Shown here: positions 1,422-30,195 of the stretch, in pieces | Layout of the letters: every line of letters begins with the position of its first letter | How positions within the stretch are numbered: the stretch's first letter is position 1 | Source: an uncultured virus (IMG/VR IMGVR_UViG_3300009408_000009) | Taxonomy: Duplodnaviria > Heunggongvirae > Uroviricota > Caudoviricetes | Virus record (IMG/VR): IMGVR_UViG_3300009408_000009 | Length of the DNA stretch: 60,405 nucleotides | Reading direction: 5' to 3' (one strand) | Made by a program: the position numbers and the translations under genes | The notes under the pieces: generated by a model | What the model saw: only the letters and a program-made list of their open reading frames with translations | Database searches by the model: none | Told to the model about the DNA's origin: nothing

Positions 1422-2375
1422 TTAAAAATTAAAAAATTTACTGGCAGTTTTTTGTTCATTAAGTACTAATCCCCATTTTAATACATCATAAAAATCTTGA
1501 AGTTTTCCTAATAATTCTCTTTCAAATATTTTTTCATGATTAATATAAGTATCTATAAATTTTGTTATTTCTGGTGGGTCTTTATATCCAGTAAATCCTA
1601 CTGCATCTAATCCAAACGGATTACGTTTTAAATACACCCATTTTATTTTATCGCCGTTTTTCATTGGTGCGTATTTATATGGAGTTTTGTAATATTTTAA
1701 TAAATCATTATACGCAATACCAGCTTTAACATGAGCAGGTGCACCCTTTTTAAAATCGAATAATTTTGTGCTCCCAACATTCATATATTTACTTAGTTCC
1801 TTTACTGCAGAATTTTTAGCTATATCTGTGTTTGATAACTGTATCATCGAACTTTTGAATCCTAATATTATATCTGATATTGTACTTTGCGGTGTATCTT
1901 TTAATATTTCTATAAGTACTTTTGACATTAAATCTTGAAATGCTTTTGGAAATGATGAACGTATTACATCTAACCCTTTAACATCAAGTTTATCAACAGG
2001 TACACCATTATTAGAAATAATCCATTGAGCATATCTTTTTTTGGCTACCCAAAATCCTGCGCGTGCAACATATTCCTTTTTTATTTGTAATCTGTGTTGT
2101 TGTACATTTAATATTTTATCTGCAAATATATCATAAAATTTATTTAAATAATTTTGCATTTCTCCTGCAATATTATCCACTTTTTTAGCTATATTTGCAG
2201 GTGTGTCTTGTTCCCATTTAGGGTTTCGGTAGTCTAATAACGGTACTGCCGAAAAAAATACTGAATCTGTATCAATTTTCTCCCCGAAAGATTAAACTAA
2301 CGGGGAGAACGCATCGATATAGATATTGCTATCTACTGTAGCACCACCTATATCGAGTATTTTTTTTATTTTCAT
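1422..2375 (-). CDS. polB: Family B DNA polymerase, C-terminal subunit (motif C, palm, thumb), interrupted by a 42-nt stop-containing insert
   Basis: From ATG 2375: MKIKKILDIGGATVDSNIYID-[AFSPLV*SFGEKID]-TDSVFFSAVPLLD..., in frame with the 1422..2180 ORF (AKKRY, KGLDVIRS). Removing 42 nt restores YIDTDS. Confidence 0.85.
2271..2312 (-). other. Putative translational bypass (hop) element / coding gap
   Basis: GAT (2315-2313) ... GAT (2273-2271); 9-bp stem TTCTCCCCG/CGGGGAGAA (2278-2286 and 2301-2309); in-frame TAA at 2294-2292 in the loop. Confidence 0.65.
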
Positions 2376-2391
2376 TTATTATATATTTTTA

Positions 2392-4164
2392 TTAATTTAA
2401 AACTAAATCATCATTTGGTTGCAATTCTTTAGCCGGTATTGTTGTTATAATTCCATTACGAGTTATAGTCATTTTAGTATTTGGACTAATTTTAATAATT
2501 TTATTATTTTCTAACTCAATCTTCATCGGAGTTCCGCCAATTTCTTCATTATATTTAAGATTACACATATTCGCCGTTGACTTAATAATTAGCTGTCCTG
2601 TCGTTGTAACTGCTTCAGCATTTTCTCTATCATAAAAACGAAATGCGGGGAGACCCATTGTGCCATATAAACTATTAAGTAAAATTTTCTGTACAAGCTG
2701 TCGTTTTCCATAAAAATTATATTGTTCACTATCGCCAGATTTACCATATTTTTTCATTAAATTTTTATATTTTACTCGTTGATCAAACCATAATGAAAGT
2801 ATACCTGGAATACAACCTACTATATCTTTTCTGTACAAAACTCCATTAGTTGATACACTATAATCTTGCTCTTTTATAAGTTTAGCTAAGTTTTCCGAAG
2901 TTATAGTATTATTATCAATAGAATATGTTTTATTAGTATTATTTAAAAATTGTTGTGAATCCCAGTTAATAATTTTAGCAATTTTAGTTTCTGGCGAAAT
3001 ATTTAATGTCATAATAATAGATGGATACAATGATGTTAAATCTAAATCATATATCCAATCATGTTTACCAACTATTGGTTCTTTTACATATGCACCAATA
3101 AATTTTCCCTTTCCCGCTTCTTTTAATGCTTTCATTTTTTCTCTTCTATCTGCAGGTTTATTAGGAGCAACTAAATTTTTACGTTTTAAATAAGTTAATA
3201 ATGCACCTTCTAAATATTTAGAAGAATATACAAAATCTTCATATGGTACATGACCTGAATGACAAATTCCTCTACATAAATCAATAAATTGTAGTTTCTT
3301 TTCTAATTTTACTACAATTTCAACATCTACTGTATTATATTCGACAAATTTATTAATATCTGTTTGAAATAAATCATCAAGGTTTCCTTCATATTCAATT
3401 TTACCTTGATTTAGTTCAAGTTTACCAACGGTATCTAATCTATAATTAGGCAATTCATTATAATTGAATTTCTTATATAATGATAAATAATCTAAGCAAC
3501 TTACCCCCGCTAAAAAGAATCTTTGGCGATACGGTGAATAAAATGATTTTCCAATCGGTGATAATCTATTTGCGTAGTCTATTCCTAATATTCGTTTTAT
3601 ACGATTAAATAAGTATGGAATATCAAAATAGTCAATATTCCAACCTGTTATAATATCTGGTGCTATATCTTCATATATTTCTAAAAATTTCAAACACATA
3701 GCTATTTCAGTTTTAAACGGTAACACTAATGCCTTTGATGTTTGTTTTGCTTGCATTTTACCGGTTTTATCCATTACAAGTACAACATATTTATTACTAA
3801 TATTATCGTGCAACCCAATAGCAGTCAGCTCGTTAGTTGATTCATTAACATTAGGTAATCCACTTTCCATTTCTACCTCAATATCAAATGTAAATACTTT
3901 AATACCAGTTGAAATTTCATCTGAATCTGTGTAAGTATCTACGAGTACTCTTGTAGTTTCAGGTACATCAGATTCAAAAAGATTAATGTCATCCTTTGAA
4001 AACTTATATATCTTAGTTAGTTTATCACCATAAATTGATGTGTAACTACCATTAATATTTTTTTCATATGCGTATCGAGAGTATGGAAACGAAATATATC
4101 CGTTAGTGTCATCCCAGATATGCATTAAATTCTTCTCCCTCTGATAATATATATTTTTATAAAT
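2392..4164 (-). CDS. polB: Family B DNA polymerase, N-terminal subunit (3'-5' exonuclease, motifs A and B) with intein-like C-terminal tail
   Basis: FDIE, GWNIDYFDIPY, YNTVDVE, DLTSLYPSII, QKILLNSLYG. The frame extends 13 codons upstream of ATG 4125 to ATT 4164 (start uncertain). Confidence 0.9.
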   Translation of the reverse strand: MYKNIYYQREKNLMHIWDDTNGYISFPYSRYAYEKNINGSYTSIYGDKLTKIYKFSKDDINLFESDVPETTRVLVDTYTDSDEISTGIKVFTFDIEVEMESGLPNVNESTNELTAIGLHDNISNKYVVLVMDKTGKMQAKQTSKALVLPFKTEIAMCLKFLEIYEDIAPDIITGWNIDYFDIPYLFNRIKRILGIDYANRLSPIGKSFYSPYRQRFFLAGVSCLDYLSLYKKFNYNELPNYRLDTVGKLELNQGKIEYEGNLDDLFQTDINKFVEYNTVDVEIVVKLEKKLQFIDLCRGICHSGHVPYEDFVYSSKYLEGALLTYLKRKNLVAPNKPADRREKMKALKEAGKGKFIGAYVKEPIVGKHDWIYDLDLTSLYPSIIMTLNISPETKIAKIINWDSQQFLNNTNKTYSIDNNTITSENLAKLIKEQDYSVSTNGVLYRKDIVGCIPGILSLWFDQRVKYKNLMKKYGKSGDSEQYNFYGKRQLVQKILLNSLYGTMGLPAFRFYDRENAEAVTTTGQLIIKSTANMCNLKYNEEIGGTPMKIELENNKIIKISPNTKMTITRNGIITTIPAKELQPNDDLVLN

Positions 4165-4608: not shown

Positions 4609-5853
4609 TTATGGTTTCTGAAATAGCCATATAGGCTCGCAGAAAGTTTTAGTATTTTCATTTGATTCTTTAATTGTTTCTTCTGAGTAGTGTTCTGTAT
4701 TTCTTGCGGTTAAAGTTCCACCAGAATTTGGACGCGATGCCATTGCCATTCCAATACATCCTTTATATATCATTCCGTGTTCTGTTAAGAAATCATTCAT
4801 TGGATTACAAATTTCTAACCAACTTTTATCCATTGACAATTTACTATTGCTATATACATCTGCTATATTAATTGCTATAATTCCACTTTTTTTTACAGTT
4901 GGTATTATTTTTTCTAATGTTTTATGTAAAAAATCTTTGTTCCATTTATTTATATCTTTGTATCGTACCCAACTTTGTGTATCATCATATGAGTATCGTT
5001 CCACCGAAAAATAGGGTGGTGATGTAAATACAATATCAAAATAATTTGTATAGTTTGAATAATCAAAATCTTCGGCTGGCGATACATAGAAATCAGTTTT
5101 CTTTTTGTTTTCAAAAAATGAAGAATTTTTTGTGTAAAATTCTTTTTGCTTTTTATAAAATGGATGATTCTCTTTTCTCGGGTCTAATCCAACGTAATGT
5201 TCCGTACAATCCGCCGAATAAAAACCAGCTAATCTATCACCCCAGCCCATTGAAAAATCCAATATTGTTTTTGCATTATACATTTCATATAAAGCTTTAG
5301 CTACTGATGGTTTAAATTGTGCACAAATATATTTGCGTAATCCAATCATAGTTCTTAATTCAGATTTTCCAACTTTTTTTAATTTAAGAGAATATGCTGA
5401 ACCCATTAATGAAGTCATAAACTTTTCATTTATCCAAGTTCGTGCAGGGCCCGGTGAAACTGAACCATCTACACTCCATCTATTAGTTTGTTGAAAATAA
5501 TTTGAAGATTTATTTCCGGTATTTAATCTACTAAAATACAGTTGCTTATCGTTATACGTATAAGGATACCGCGATTTAGATGCTTTACGTGGAAACCACT
5601 CACCCTCTTTTAAAAGTTCGTTATATCTCACCCCTTTAAGTTTCATGTAATCTTTATACGCATCGCGTTCTGATATTTCTGCATATGGTATTTCGTAAGT
5701 CATAGCACATTTTGCCATTTGCAACTTTACATCATCCTTTTCATATGTGTTTTTAATATGCTCCCATTGTTCTTCGTTGATGAAGAAGTAGGGAGTCATA
5801 TTATAAAATTGTTTAAAATAATCTGTTATATTCATTTTATTGGATGAGTTCAT
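4609..5853 (-). CDS. DNA amino-methyltransferase (N4-C/N6-A)
   Basis: SAM-binding ILDFSMGWGDR followed by catalytic FTSPPYF. Confidence 0.85.
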   Translation of the reverse strand: MNSSNKMNITDYFKQFYNMTPYFFINEEQWEHIKNTYEKDDVKLQMAKCAMTYEIPYAEISERDAYKDYMKLKGVRYNELLKEGEWFPRKASKSRYPYTYNDKQLYFSRLNTGNKSSNYFQQTNRWSVDGSVSPGPARTWINEKFMTSLMGSAYSLKLKKVGKSELRTMIGLRKYICAQFKPSVAKALYEMYNAKTILDFSMGWGDRLAGFYSADCTEHYVGLDPRKENHPFYKKQKEFYTKNSSFFENKKKTDFYVSPAEDFDYSNYTNYFDIVFTSPPYFSVERYSYDDTQSWVRYKDINKWNKDFLHKTLEKIIPTVKKSGIIAINIADVYSNSKLSMDKSWLEICNPMNDFLTEHGMIYKGCIGMAMASRPNSGGTLTARNTEHYSEETIKESNENTKTFCEPIWLFQKP

Positions 5854-28899: not shown

Positions 28900-30195
28900 T
28901 TAAACCTGCGAATAATCAGTTCCCCACGATGCTTTTACTGGATATCCAAAACTTTCTAATATGTTTTTTATATTTTTTGCTTCATTTACTCCATTATTTT
29001 TGTCATATTCAAAAAGAAATGCGTCATATGAATATAGACACAACGAGTTTATTCCATTTTCATATAATTTTGAAATTATTTTCATATTTGTTTCTGTTTC
29101 AGTTGCTTGTAATAAATAATTGAAAACTTTTTGCGGTGTAGCATTATCTATCCAATTCAAAAATATTTTTCTGCCAGATGGTGTTTTAACATATCCATAT
29201 TTTTTAGCTTTGTTATATATTTTTTGAATATATAAGTCTACCTTATTAAAAAACGGAATTTTTTTATCTTCCGTATTAACCCCTCCATAAAGTATTCTAA
29301 ACGTTCTAGATTTTGATTCTGTATAATTACAACCATACATATTAGCCAACCATAGGTGCGTCGATGTTTTTGGTAATTTAAAATTTATCATCTTTGCAAT
29401 AAGTCGTACATGATATGCATCGTAATCAAATGATAAAAATATTTTATCAAATCCCGGTATAAAAATTTCACGTGTGCCATCATTTTTATTAAGAGCTCCA
29501 TAATTAATACCAGCATGATGATTAGATGGTCGTGATGTTATTGTATATGGATTATATTCTGTATAAACTTTGTTTTCTTTAATATGTTTTATTGCATTCG
29601 GAAATCTATTTATAAATTTTTTCTTATCTATATGAATACCATGTTGTTCTAATTTTGATAAAATCGGTATCATTACTTGGTCTACCCAATTATCTGTAAA
29701 TGAGTATAATATAATATTTATTAAGGGGGTAGTAATACCTCGTAATACCTCAATCCACTTCATTATAGGAATGCTTTTACCTAAATCATCGTGTAACCCT
29801 AATCGAGTATAAAACCCCGTTAAATCTCCTATTTTTTCATCAATCTGATATAACTCATTATTATTAAAAAAGTTATCTGCTTGCATATCATATAAATTTT
29901 GAATGCCTAAATTTGTCTGCAATAATCCTTTTTTATAAAATGTTTTTTTCTTTTGAGTTGACCGAGTTAAATCAATATTAAGTCGTTCGCAATCATTATG
30001 ATTAAAAGGTAAAATATAATCCATTTTATATAATCCTTGATCAGTTTCATCATCGCGAAACCTCACATATAAAAATGATATATCATTATTCATTGGATGT
30101 GTTTCCGTATCTGCCCAAACGGGAAATATCAAACACGGTTCAGTATTCCAATAATTTAAAAAATTATCTATATCTTTTTTAGTTTCTAGTATCAT
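28900..30195 (-). CDS. Divergent family A DNA polymerase-like protein
   Basis: TSRPSN, FDYDAYHVR (motif A-like), KSRTFRILYG (motif B), NYLLQ, YSYDA (motif C-like). Confidence 0.75.
   Translation of the reverse strand: MILETKKDIDNFLNYWNTEPCLIFPVWADTETHPMNNDISFLYVRFRDDETDQGLYKMDYILPFNHNDCERLNIDLTRSTQKKKTFYKKGLLQTNLGIQNLYDMQADNFFNNNELYQIDEKIGDLTGFYTRLGLHDDLGKSIPIMKWIEVLRGITTPLINIILYSFTDNWVDQVMIPILSKLEQHGIHIDKKKFINRFPNAIKHIKENKVYTEYNPYTITSRPSNHHAGINYGALNKNDGTREIFIPGFDKIFLSFDYDAYHVRLIAKMINFKLPKTSTHLWLANMYGCNYTESKSRTFRILYGGVNTEDKKIPFFNKVDLYIQKIYNKAKKYGYVKTPSGRKIFLNWIDNATPQKVFNYLLQATETETNMKIISKLYENGINSLCLYSYDAFLFEYDKNNGVNEAKNIKNILESFGYPVKASWGTDYSQV

Follow-up and report, generated by a model that had tools for sequence, protein, structure and literature searches.

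A 42-nucleotide interruption of motif C in a split phage DNA polymerase gene, a candidate for programmed translational bypass

The viral contig IMGVR_UViG_3300009408_000009 of IMG/VR (60,405 nucleotides (nt); hereafter the window, that is, the whole stretch that was analysed) encodes a family B DNA polymerase (PolB) as two separate halves, and the second half is interrupted by 42 nt within catalytic motif C. We consider it probable, from the comparison of related genes, that these 42 nt form a coding gap which ribosomes bypass by a programmed hop between two identical GAT codons, at 2315-2313 and 2273-2271. The feature itself is real and non-random. All parts of the locus lie on the minus strand, in a window of 25 to 35% G+C throughout, and are given in Table 1.

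Table 1. Features of the interrupted PolB locus, in order of transcription
Feature	Position	Strand	Description
PolB N-half open reading frame (ORF)	4125..2392	-	577 amino acids (aa), stop TAA 2394-2392; exonuclease and polymerase motifs A and B
N-half C-terminal extension (CTE)	2395-2532	-	about 46 aa, TPMKIELENN...DDLVLN; lacking in unsplit relatives
Spacer between PolB halves	2391-2376	-	16 nt, without homing endonuclease gene
Start ATG of second half	2375-2373	-	directly after the 16-nt spacer
Codons 1-21 of second half	2375..2313	-	MKIKKILDIGGATVDSNIYID; N-terminal extension MKIKKILDIGG, then ATVDSNIYID
5' arm of 5' stem-loop	2357-2345	-	CTCGATATAGGTG
3' arm of 5' stem-loop	2325-2313	-	TATCTATATCGAT; last 3 nt are the proposed take-off codon
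Proposed take-off codon GAT	2315-2313	-	Asp, first Asp of motif C, aligned to RB69 D621
Insert	2312-2271	-	42 nt: 39 nt undecoded in the proposed hop, plus landing GAT
GC-rich hairpin	2309-2278	-	9-bp stem TTCTCCCCG/CGGGGAGAA, 14-nt loop
Loop stop TAA	2294-2292	-	in frame, 7 codons past take-off
GGGGAG	2285-2280	-	candidate mini-Shine-Dalgarno (SD) for a hop; candidate SD for a restart
GAG	2282-2280	-	6 nt 5' of the second GAT
ATT	2276-2274	-	sole near-cognate start between loop stop and motif C
Proposed landing codon GAT	2273-2271	-	matches the take-off codon
Remaining second half	2270..1422	-	ACA GAT TCA (TDSVFF...), insert in frame, stop 1424-1422

The identity of the gene is given by Pfam, with DNA_pol_B_exo1 and DNA_pol_B in the N-half and DNA_pol_B again after the insert. 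The ATVDSNIYID part of the second half is homologous to unsplit PolB, and the first residue after the gap aligns with residue 621 of RB69 gp43, so that the motif DTD corresponds to D621-T622-D623. The part beyond the insert contains the second motif-C Asp (RB69 D623) and KKRY, and both halves together retain all motifs. The insert reads GCG TTC TCC CCG TTA GTT TAA TCT TTC GGG GAG AAA ATT GAT. An initial annotation of this DNA had described an ATG at 2375 leading to ...SNIYID, the 42 extra nt and TDSVFF, with a 9-bp stem, a TAA in its loop, matched GAT codons and a GAG 6 nt before the second of them; every one of these statements is confirmed on the minus strand, and the size of 303 aa that it gave for the hop product agrees with the arithmetic (21 + 282 aa).

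The same 801 nt, without any variant, are found in a Logan contig of 6607 nt, with a mean word depth of 285, assembled from the run that is the likely source. As this contig is a second assembly of the same reads, the insert, whose presence in reads had been left to be checked, is upheld at that depth but not independently.

Under the proposed bypass, ribosomes would start at ATG 2375 and reach the GAT at 2315-2313. The GC hairpin 3 nt downstream would hinder normal decoding and cause a pause, and peptidyl-tRNA(Asp) would release its GAT. The mRNA leaving the ribosome would zip into a 5' stem-loop (2357-2345 with 2325-2313) and thereby pull the message forward; base pairing between GAG 2282-2280 and the anti-SD of 16S rRNA may assist landing, and the tRNA would re-pair at GAT 2273-2271, with decoding resuming at ACA. 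The outcome would be a 303-aa subunit in which YID is joined to TDS and the motif is intact, while ribosomes that do not hop would terminate at the loop TAA. The hop, its trigger and its yield we infer from the comparative observations that follow.

The interruption among related polymerases

Protein-led scans of viral contigs provided the best 80 of 572 relatives, plus 72 loci, and pattern scans added few; these loci were reduced to 96 distinct C-terminal-part sequences, 86 unsplit and 10 split. None of the unsplit PolBs is interrupted: all 86 read ...NIYIDTDSVFF. Among the split forms, 7 of 10 are interrupted, always in motif C (Table 2), and 3 are not. All 10 are broken where the window gene is broken, with an N-half tail and an MKIKKI-like start of the second half. 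Two of the seven, L276 and L086, were first found by scans aimed at interruptions; the L086 contig is also in a protein-led scan. Alignment of homologous polB genes, one of the checks that had been proposed for the insert, bears it out: the 42 nt are absent from 86 of 86 unsplit genes and have homologues of 42 or 43 nt in L086 and L276/L280.

Table 2. Interruptions of motif C in split PolB genes
Locus (other loci of this form)	Length	Layout
Window	42 nt	GAT ... GAT
L276 (L280)	43 nt, same hairpin core	GAT ... GAT, TAG in loop, frame shifted
L086 (L207, L208, L279)	42 nt, same core	TAA one codon past GAT; GGGGAT AAA ATG TAC before ACA
L030 (L082, L085)	6 nt	ACG TAA ATG GAT
L048 (L084, L282)	5 nt	ACG TAACC GAT
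L258 (L281)	5 nt	ACC TGACA GAT
L244 (L248)	5 nt	ACC TGATT GAT

In the insert of L276, homologous to that of the window, a TAG stands in the loop at the place of the window TAA, a GAG lies 7 nt before the landing GAT and, as in the window, the gap holds no further GAT or GAC triplet in any frame. The short inserts have a different layout. All four place a stop (TAA or TGA) immediately after a Thr codon, and L048 and L258 have the arrangement ACN-stop-ACN, with a second Thr codon 5 nt on that overlaps the stop. The flanking codons thus match as Thr/Thr in L048 and L258; they are unmatched in L086, L030 and L244.

Start codons available for the downstream part differ among these alleles. In the window, ATG, GTG and TTG are absent between the loop stop and motif C, and the next canonical start lies 29 codons downstream. 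L086 and L030 have an ATG, L258 has only CTG, and L244 has ATA, CTG and ATT. L276/L280 and L048 contain no canonical or near-cognate start in the DSVFF frame, and they keep DSVFFSAVP in frame with the remainder of the gene. Because neither L276 nor L048 offers a start, at least two types of interruption need recoding, and both have matched codons.

Codon comparison with 12 unsplit relatives bears on whether the interrupted gene is expressed. The last seven codons before the insert (DSNIYID) gave 38 identical, 46 synonymous and 0 nonsynonymous cases in 84 comparisons, and the 14 codons from the landing GAT gave 70, 89 and 9, respectively, in 168 comparisons. This pattern indicates that both flanks are translated and under strict purifying selection. 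Together with the lack of a canonical start, it argues against decay and excludes a product that begins at the GTG chosen by the gene caller. Decay of the rest of polB, which the initial annotation had named as an observation that would count against its proposal, is therefore not what the flanks record.

The 43-nt element of L276/L280, which changes the frame, keeps GAT...GAT and has no start, provides strong comparative support for the hop as a reading of these sequences. So do the ACN-stop-ACN layout and a 5' stem-loop that is confined to interrupted alleles (see below). The GAT-to-GAT hop first suggested for the window thus gains strong support, of a comparative kind and not as a demonstration of the protein product.

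L276 and L280 come from different genomes (their N-half ends are 97% identical and the genes between their halves differ), and interruptions recur across metagenomes (L085 with L030, L207 with L086, L280 with L276). In a quick tree, the split forms are interspersed with unsplit ones, L276 (43 nt) has L048 (5 nt) as its sister with a support of 100, and the C-terminal part of L030 (6 nt) is nearly identical to that of the uninterrupted split form L052. Close relatives thus gain, lose or exchange the interruption.

Structures around the proposed take-off codon

The 13 nt that end at the first motif-C Asp codon pair with a stretch coding for the N-terminal tail, 13 to 25 nt upstream. In the window 12 of 13 positions pair (duplex -14.5 kcal/mol). 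This 5' stem-loop is present in all seven interrupted forms (11 to 13 of 13 pairs, -10.2 to -19.1 kcal/mol) and in none of the three uninterrupted split forms (-2.4 to -4.2 kcal/mol); the 86 unsplit forms average -4.4 kcal/mol, and 2 of them reach -10. In its 9-bp core, 61 of 63 cells are paired across the seven interrupted alleles and three pairs are altered on both sides; one of them is A-U in the window, L086 and L244 and G-C in the other four. The covariation score of the core is 0.360, against a shuffle mean of 0.245, and 0 of 500 shuffles reach it; in slid controls, with partners moved by one to three columns, 2 to 45% of cells pair. The structure resembles the 5' stem-loop of T4 gene 60.

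The second structure, the GC-rich hairpin, begins 3 nt past the take-off codon. A 101-nt segment around it folds at -30 kcal/mol (z -4.69, with 0 of 200 shuffles equally stable), and its pattern occurs once in the window versus 0.00 to 0.01 expected. Folding of these 101 nt by themselves prolongs the stem into its flanks, to 11 of 12 pairs, as had been noted initially. In the fold of a 139-nt segment, however, the GC hairpin forms next to the 5' stem-loop (-45.5 kcal/mol, z -6.36), and the take-off codon belongs to the 5' stem-loop instead of to the extended hairpin of the shorter fold. The 139-nt fold also has an outer helix, in which 2358-2367 pairs with 2253-2262 (minus strand), bringing together the A-run in the KIKKI codons and the U-run in the VFF codons and enclosing both structures in a three-way junction. 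Chance A/U pairing could account for this helix, or it could act as a barrier beyond the landing site.

Three distinct elements (window, L276 and L086) share 26 of 32 hairpin positions. Their stem cells are paired in 26 of 27 cases, and two of the nine pairs are altered on both sides (C-G to A-U, and U-A to G-U). Covariation of the stem, which the initial annotation had proposed to look for, appears as two such double changes, which with three sequences are not significant (109 of 500 shuffles do equally well). Scans of collections found the hairpin core at this PolB site and otherwise in three unrelated-looking matches. Four loci from the pattern scans, L083 and L275/L277/L278, we set aside as chance: one is unrelated sequence, two have the same terminator-like hairpin, which lies between convergent genes, and one is a cellular-looking contig. 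By a rough estimate, about 1 to 2 random matches are expected for the pattern used. A looser hairpin scan of viral contigs returned two contigs of the L086 type and nothing else. The Rfam search had nothing at gathering score (best E values 0.16 and 0.87), and no tRNA genes were found in the window.

Weighing the hop against other explanations

Several observations weigh against a programmed hop. The codon after take-off, GCG, is uncommon (3.8 per 1000 window codons) but is not a stop, and in L276 it is CAT; since neither is a slow codon or a stop and the stop comes only seven codons on, the usual trigger, a slow A site, is missing. The window insert is in frame and places GGGGAG-AAA-ATT before GAT ACA GAT, so that a restart could give a third piece with both Asp residues. 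The L086 element, with an ATG, an SD-like run and no matched landing codon (the one GAT/GAC triplet in its gap is a GAT within the 3' arm of the hairpin), looks built for restart. SD-like motifs occur in the 20 nt before the start of only 5 of 49 window ORFs, and anti-SD pairing may therefore matter little in the host. The matched GAT codons could be a target-site duplication left by insertion. The contrast in the 5' stem-loop relies on an uninterrupted split control of only three forms with DNA, and no RNA run among those searched contains the stretch, the likely source run being the only match.

A further point of this kind comes from gene calls. Among proteins of 155 to 496 aa, the 120 best matches comprise 50 unsplit pieces, 36 uninterrupted second halves and 34 atypical calls, the latter sorted by protein, with DNA seen only for L086, L030, L048 and L276. 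Nine of the 120 start inside motif C (MDSVFF, MTDSVFF, VTDSVFF, LTDSIFF, MYTDSVFF), and five have an out-of-frame N-terminus ahead of DSVFF. Independent initiation of the last piece would thus seem to be a frequent solution. Another 18 start downstream of motif C, among them the call of the window itself, which from GTG 2180 misses that motif; the same 252-aa call is carried by a 122-kb contig. The last two have two or three extra in-frame residues in the motif and no stop (P0048 reads YIDTQIDSVFF and P0111 YIDTQFTDSIFF); either the loop tolerates insertions or these residues are also skipped. When DNA of further interrupted classes was sought with the proteins P0051 (genome contigs) and P0105 (viral contigs), only distant or unrelated loci appeared, and a pattern scan for start codons inside motif C, too degenerate, gave 0 relevant loci among the 80 examined.

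The main alternative is a polymerase in three pieces, which we regard as unlikely though worth serious attention; restart at ATT had also been listed as an alternative in the initial annotation. Translation would stop at the loop TAA after a mini-ORF of 27 aa (MKIKKI...NIYIDAFSPLV), termination would open the hairpin, and the same or new ribosomes would restart at ATT 2276-2274 with GGGGAG as SD. The third subunit would begin with (f)Met-DTDSVFF, and the mini-peptide would provide the NIYI strand in trans via the split tails. The placement of the ATT fits: it is the sole near-cognate start, just before GAT ACA GAT and 3 nt past GGGGAG. L086 has its ATG at the matching place, and the gene caller's protein starts there as MYTDSVFF; L030 has TAA ATG between DT and DS; the nine short relatives that begin within motif C point the same way; and selection on the mini-ORF is a requirement of restart as well. 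However, L276/L280 and L048 have no start at all in the target frame and still keep DSVFFSAVP, and the L276/L280 element is clearly homologous to that of the window. In bacterial initiation ATT is a poor start codon, and SD-led starts are rare in this phage (the 5 of 49 ORFs mentioned above). Restart also assigns no role to the covarying 5' stem-loop of interrupted alleles, nor to a landing GAT that is kept in a shifted frame.

Removal at the RNA level, in which the hairpin would be excised between the repeated GAU triplets and the transcript rejoined (by a mini-intron or through repair by a nuclease and a ligase), strikes us as very improbable. A compact hairpin between repeated triplets, in the window and in L276, would suit such a process, and versions of 42 and 43 nt would be equally removable. 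The inserts of 5 and 6 nt at the same site would remain unexplained, no Rfam family matches (the best hits fall below gathering score), and bacteria and their phages are not known to splice in this way.

We give equally little credence to a defective or decaying allele, or an assembly artefact, in which case the polymerase would not be made from the locus as written. The sequence is found in one sample only, a second polymerase could lie elsewhere in a genome of which the record covers about 31%, and a divergent family-A-like polymerase ORF is present at 28900-30195 (-). Against this, two assemblers agree at a depth of 285, all motifs are kept in both halves, both flanks are under strict selection and homologous interruptions occur in several metagenomes. 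The family-A-like gene (431 aa; DNA_pol_A 31.8 bits versus a cut-off of 34.3; phrog_17, DNA polymerase) is found at 57% identity in four of four complete relatives beside an intact, unsplit PolB, and is thus not a replacement for a broken one. These relatives (214 to 289 kb) have one PolB ORF each, of 838 to 843 aa. As for a second intact polB, which would have undermined the bypass proposal, the 71-kb IMG/VR record G001, 100% identical over the gene, holds this PolB only; it represents about 31% of the genome.

Two further mechanisms were rejected. Stop-codon readthrough would lengthen motif C by 14 residues and would not suit L276, whose insert shifts the frame; for the 5-nt inserts, neither a -1 nor a +2 frameshift finds a slippery site or re-pairing codon at those offsets. 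What probability remains we leave to mechanisms other than hop, restart, RNA removal and defect.

The splitting cassette, known bypass systems and genome context

The interruption belongs to a larger cassette, made of the CTE, the N-terminal tail, the 5' stem-loop and the interruption, and sometimes accompanied by a homing-endonuclease-like gene. A related CTE (about 45 aa) and an MKIKKI-like second-half start are present in all split relatives inspected. The window CTE has a weak match to Pfam Intein_splicing (E 0.005, 17 bits versus a cut-off of 35.8). A functional split intein was rejected: besides the weakness of this match, the tails together have only about 57 aa and are without the terminal Cys/Ser and His-Asn residues that inteins typically show. 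The tail looks like an association module rather than a working split intein. The motif '(E/D)IGG' is found on both sides of the break in the window PolB.

An endonuclease-like ORF lies between the PolB halves in L276, L280, L282, L052 and L070. That of L276 has 301 aa and a NUMOD3 motif, and its C-terminal 110 aa show identities of 91% to the L282 ORF and 41% to the L052 ORF; the ORF of L280 is another variant. In the window, L086, L258 and L244 the halves are separated by a short spacer only, and in L030 by three small ORFs without an endonuclease gene. As L052 and L070 are uninterrupted, the endonuclease gene alone does not predict an interruption. By analogy with T4 MobA/gene 60, the interruption may shield the conserved motif-C DNA from cutting by the endonuclease.

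In L082, the three small ORFs (67, 86 and 62 aa, at 1786-2442 in coding orientation) have no Pfam match and occupy the place of the relatives' endonuclease gene; the one of 86 aa, Cys-rich in its C-terminal part, is found ahead of the L052 endonuclease gene as well. At 75-1293 of L052 a 230-aa HNH endonuclease gene (PHROG endonuclease, E 4e-23) introduces a further break into the PolB N-half, so that this polB consists of three or more pieces and is accompanied by two different endonuclease genes.

For comparison with known systems we relied on the accessible portions of Manning & Atkins (bioRxiv 10.1101/2022.08.31.505936), of a 2016 review (PMC5009743) and of Dassa et al. 2009 (PMC2677866), and the likenesses and differences below hold within those portions. 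There, programmed bypass is known only in the gene 60 family, at one topoisomerase site, and in yeast mitochondria (10.1101/2022.08.31.505936, PMC5009743). Bypass in a DNA polymerase is not reported in the literature that we searched, which leaves out most subscription journals.

The gene 60/MobA cassette was found only in Topo2L, its GAG-to-landing distance is 5 to 7 nt, and a forward-drive role has been proposed for its 5' stem-loop (10.1101/2022.08.31.505936). The resemblance to the PolB cassette is extensive. In both, the gene of an essential replication enzyme is divided into two, with a C-terminal tail added to the first half and an N-terminal tail to the second, and the second ORF is soon interrupted by a short gap, non-coding in gene 60 and proposed to be so here, that falls within an invariant metal-binding motif. 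Some gene 60 cassettes have a homing endonuclease gene between the halves and others have lost it; the endonuclease-like ORFs of some PolB cassettes may be the counterpart. Both have matched take-off and landing codons (several gene 60 clades use the Asp codons GAU/GAC), a GAG mini-SD near landing (at 6 nt in the window and 7 nt in L276), a stem-loop 5' of the take-off codon and another hairpin where the gap begins, and some gene 60 members are also frame-shifted, with a later in-frame stop. The gene 60 comparison in the initial annotation (a split gene, a site in the second half, a GAG 6 nt before landing) holds up, as does the difference it pointed out, a stop away from take-off, here seven codons on.

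The differences are as clear. The host gene of the window element is PolB, at motif C, and not the Topo2L Toprim (T4 genes 39/60); the window has no stop or rare codon right after take-off; its hairpin is larger (9 bp, 14-nt loop) and stands 3 nt past take-off; and the nascent peptide is only 21 aa, at a site that also exists with 5- and 6-nt variants. Moreover, blastn of the 139-nt cassette and of the 2.8-kb gene against 50,697 phage records gave no match. Judging from these sequences, the cassette is most likely analogous, not homologous, to the gene 60/MobA element, and would be a new, non-homologous bypass variant within a mobile cassette that splits genes.

The byp elements of Magnusiomyces capitatus mitochondria are GC-rich hairpins of 27 to 55 nt in AT-rich coding sequence (10.1101/2022.08.31.505936, PMC5009743). 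They share with the PolB inserts a GC-rich hairpin, matched or near-matched codons and a length that is not necessarily a multiple of three. There are, however, 81 of them in one genome, with a spread like that of GC clusters, whereas the window hairpin occurs once in 60 kb and its homologues are all at one site of one gene. Unlike the window element, byps depend on an unassigned A-site codon.

Stop-hops in Escherichia coli provide a parallel for the short inserts: L048 and L258 likewise have a Thr codon, a stop and an overlapping Thr codon 5 nt on, a layout from which the 42-nt gap of the window departs. The events of a 1987 study were reportedly synthetic or low-level. In stop-hops matched codons flank the stop, and no natural in-frame case was known to the 2016 review (PMC5009743).

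The split gp43 of T4-like Aeromonas phages, described alongside 'fractured genes', is a further system for comparison (Dassa et al. 2009, PMC2677866, citing Petrov & Karam). It too is a family B polymerase in two genes, some with a homing endonuclease gene between them, and the endonuclease types are modular. Unlike the window gene, it is described as broken only once, either between ordinary start and stop signals or by split inteins, and the portions of that paper available describe no second motif-C interruption and no recoding (PMC2677866).

Taken jointly, these observations allow a wider reading, quite possible but one that we would hesitate to call probable: the split PolBs of an abundant clade of large aquatic T4-like phages may carry a second, independently evolved family of bypass cassettes. 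In it, a 5' stem-loop at the Asp codon, ending at the take-off codon or one codon before it, would drive hops of 5, 6, 42 and 43 nt over stop-bearing inserts in DTD. If so, natural stop-hops would be represented for the first time by the short forms, the interruption would protect the gene's most conserved DNA from being cut by the homing endonuclease of the cassette itself, and bypass would be a general, evolvable immunity device of mobile elements, beyond gene 60.

The hop by itself, if it occurs, would be only the second bypass system known in phages. As a non-homologous system with natural variants of 5 to 43 nt and a covarying 5' stem-loop, it would form a comparative series that could reveal which signals suffice for take-off, forward drive and landing. 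Gene callers would then be seen to truncate or mis-start such polymerases. If restart is the true explanation, a catalytic hairpin would be divided between separate polypeptides, which is equally unexpected.

No cultured phage has a close relative of this PolB, the best tblastn identity being 47.5%. Nearly all window ORFs of at least 100 aa (47 of 49) are on the minus strand. PolB-N is among the few SD-led ones, with GAGGGAG. Directly upstream of PolB is a 414-aa ORF of no assigned function (4609-5853, -), and a related ORF stands at the same place in L281. With the family-A-like ORF, this T4-like replication set contains two polymerase-like genes.

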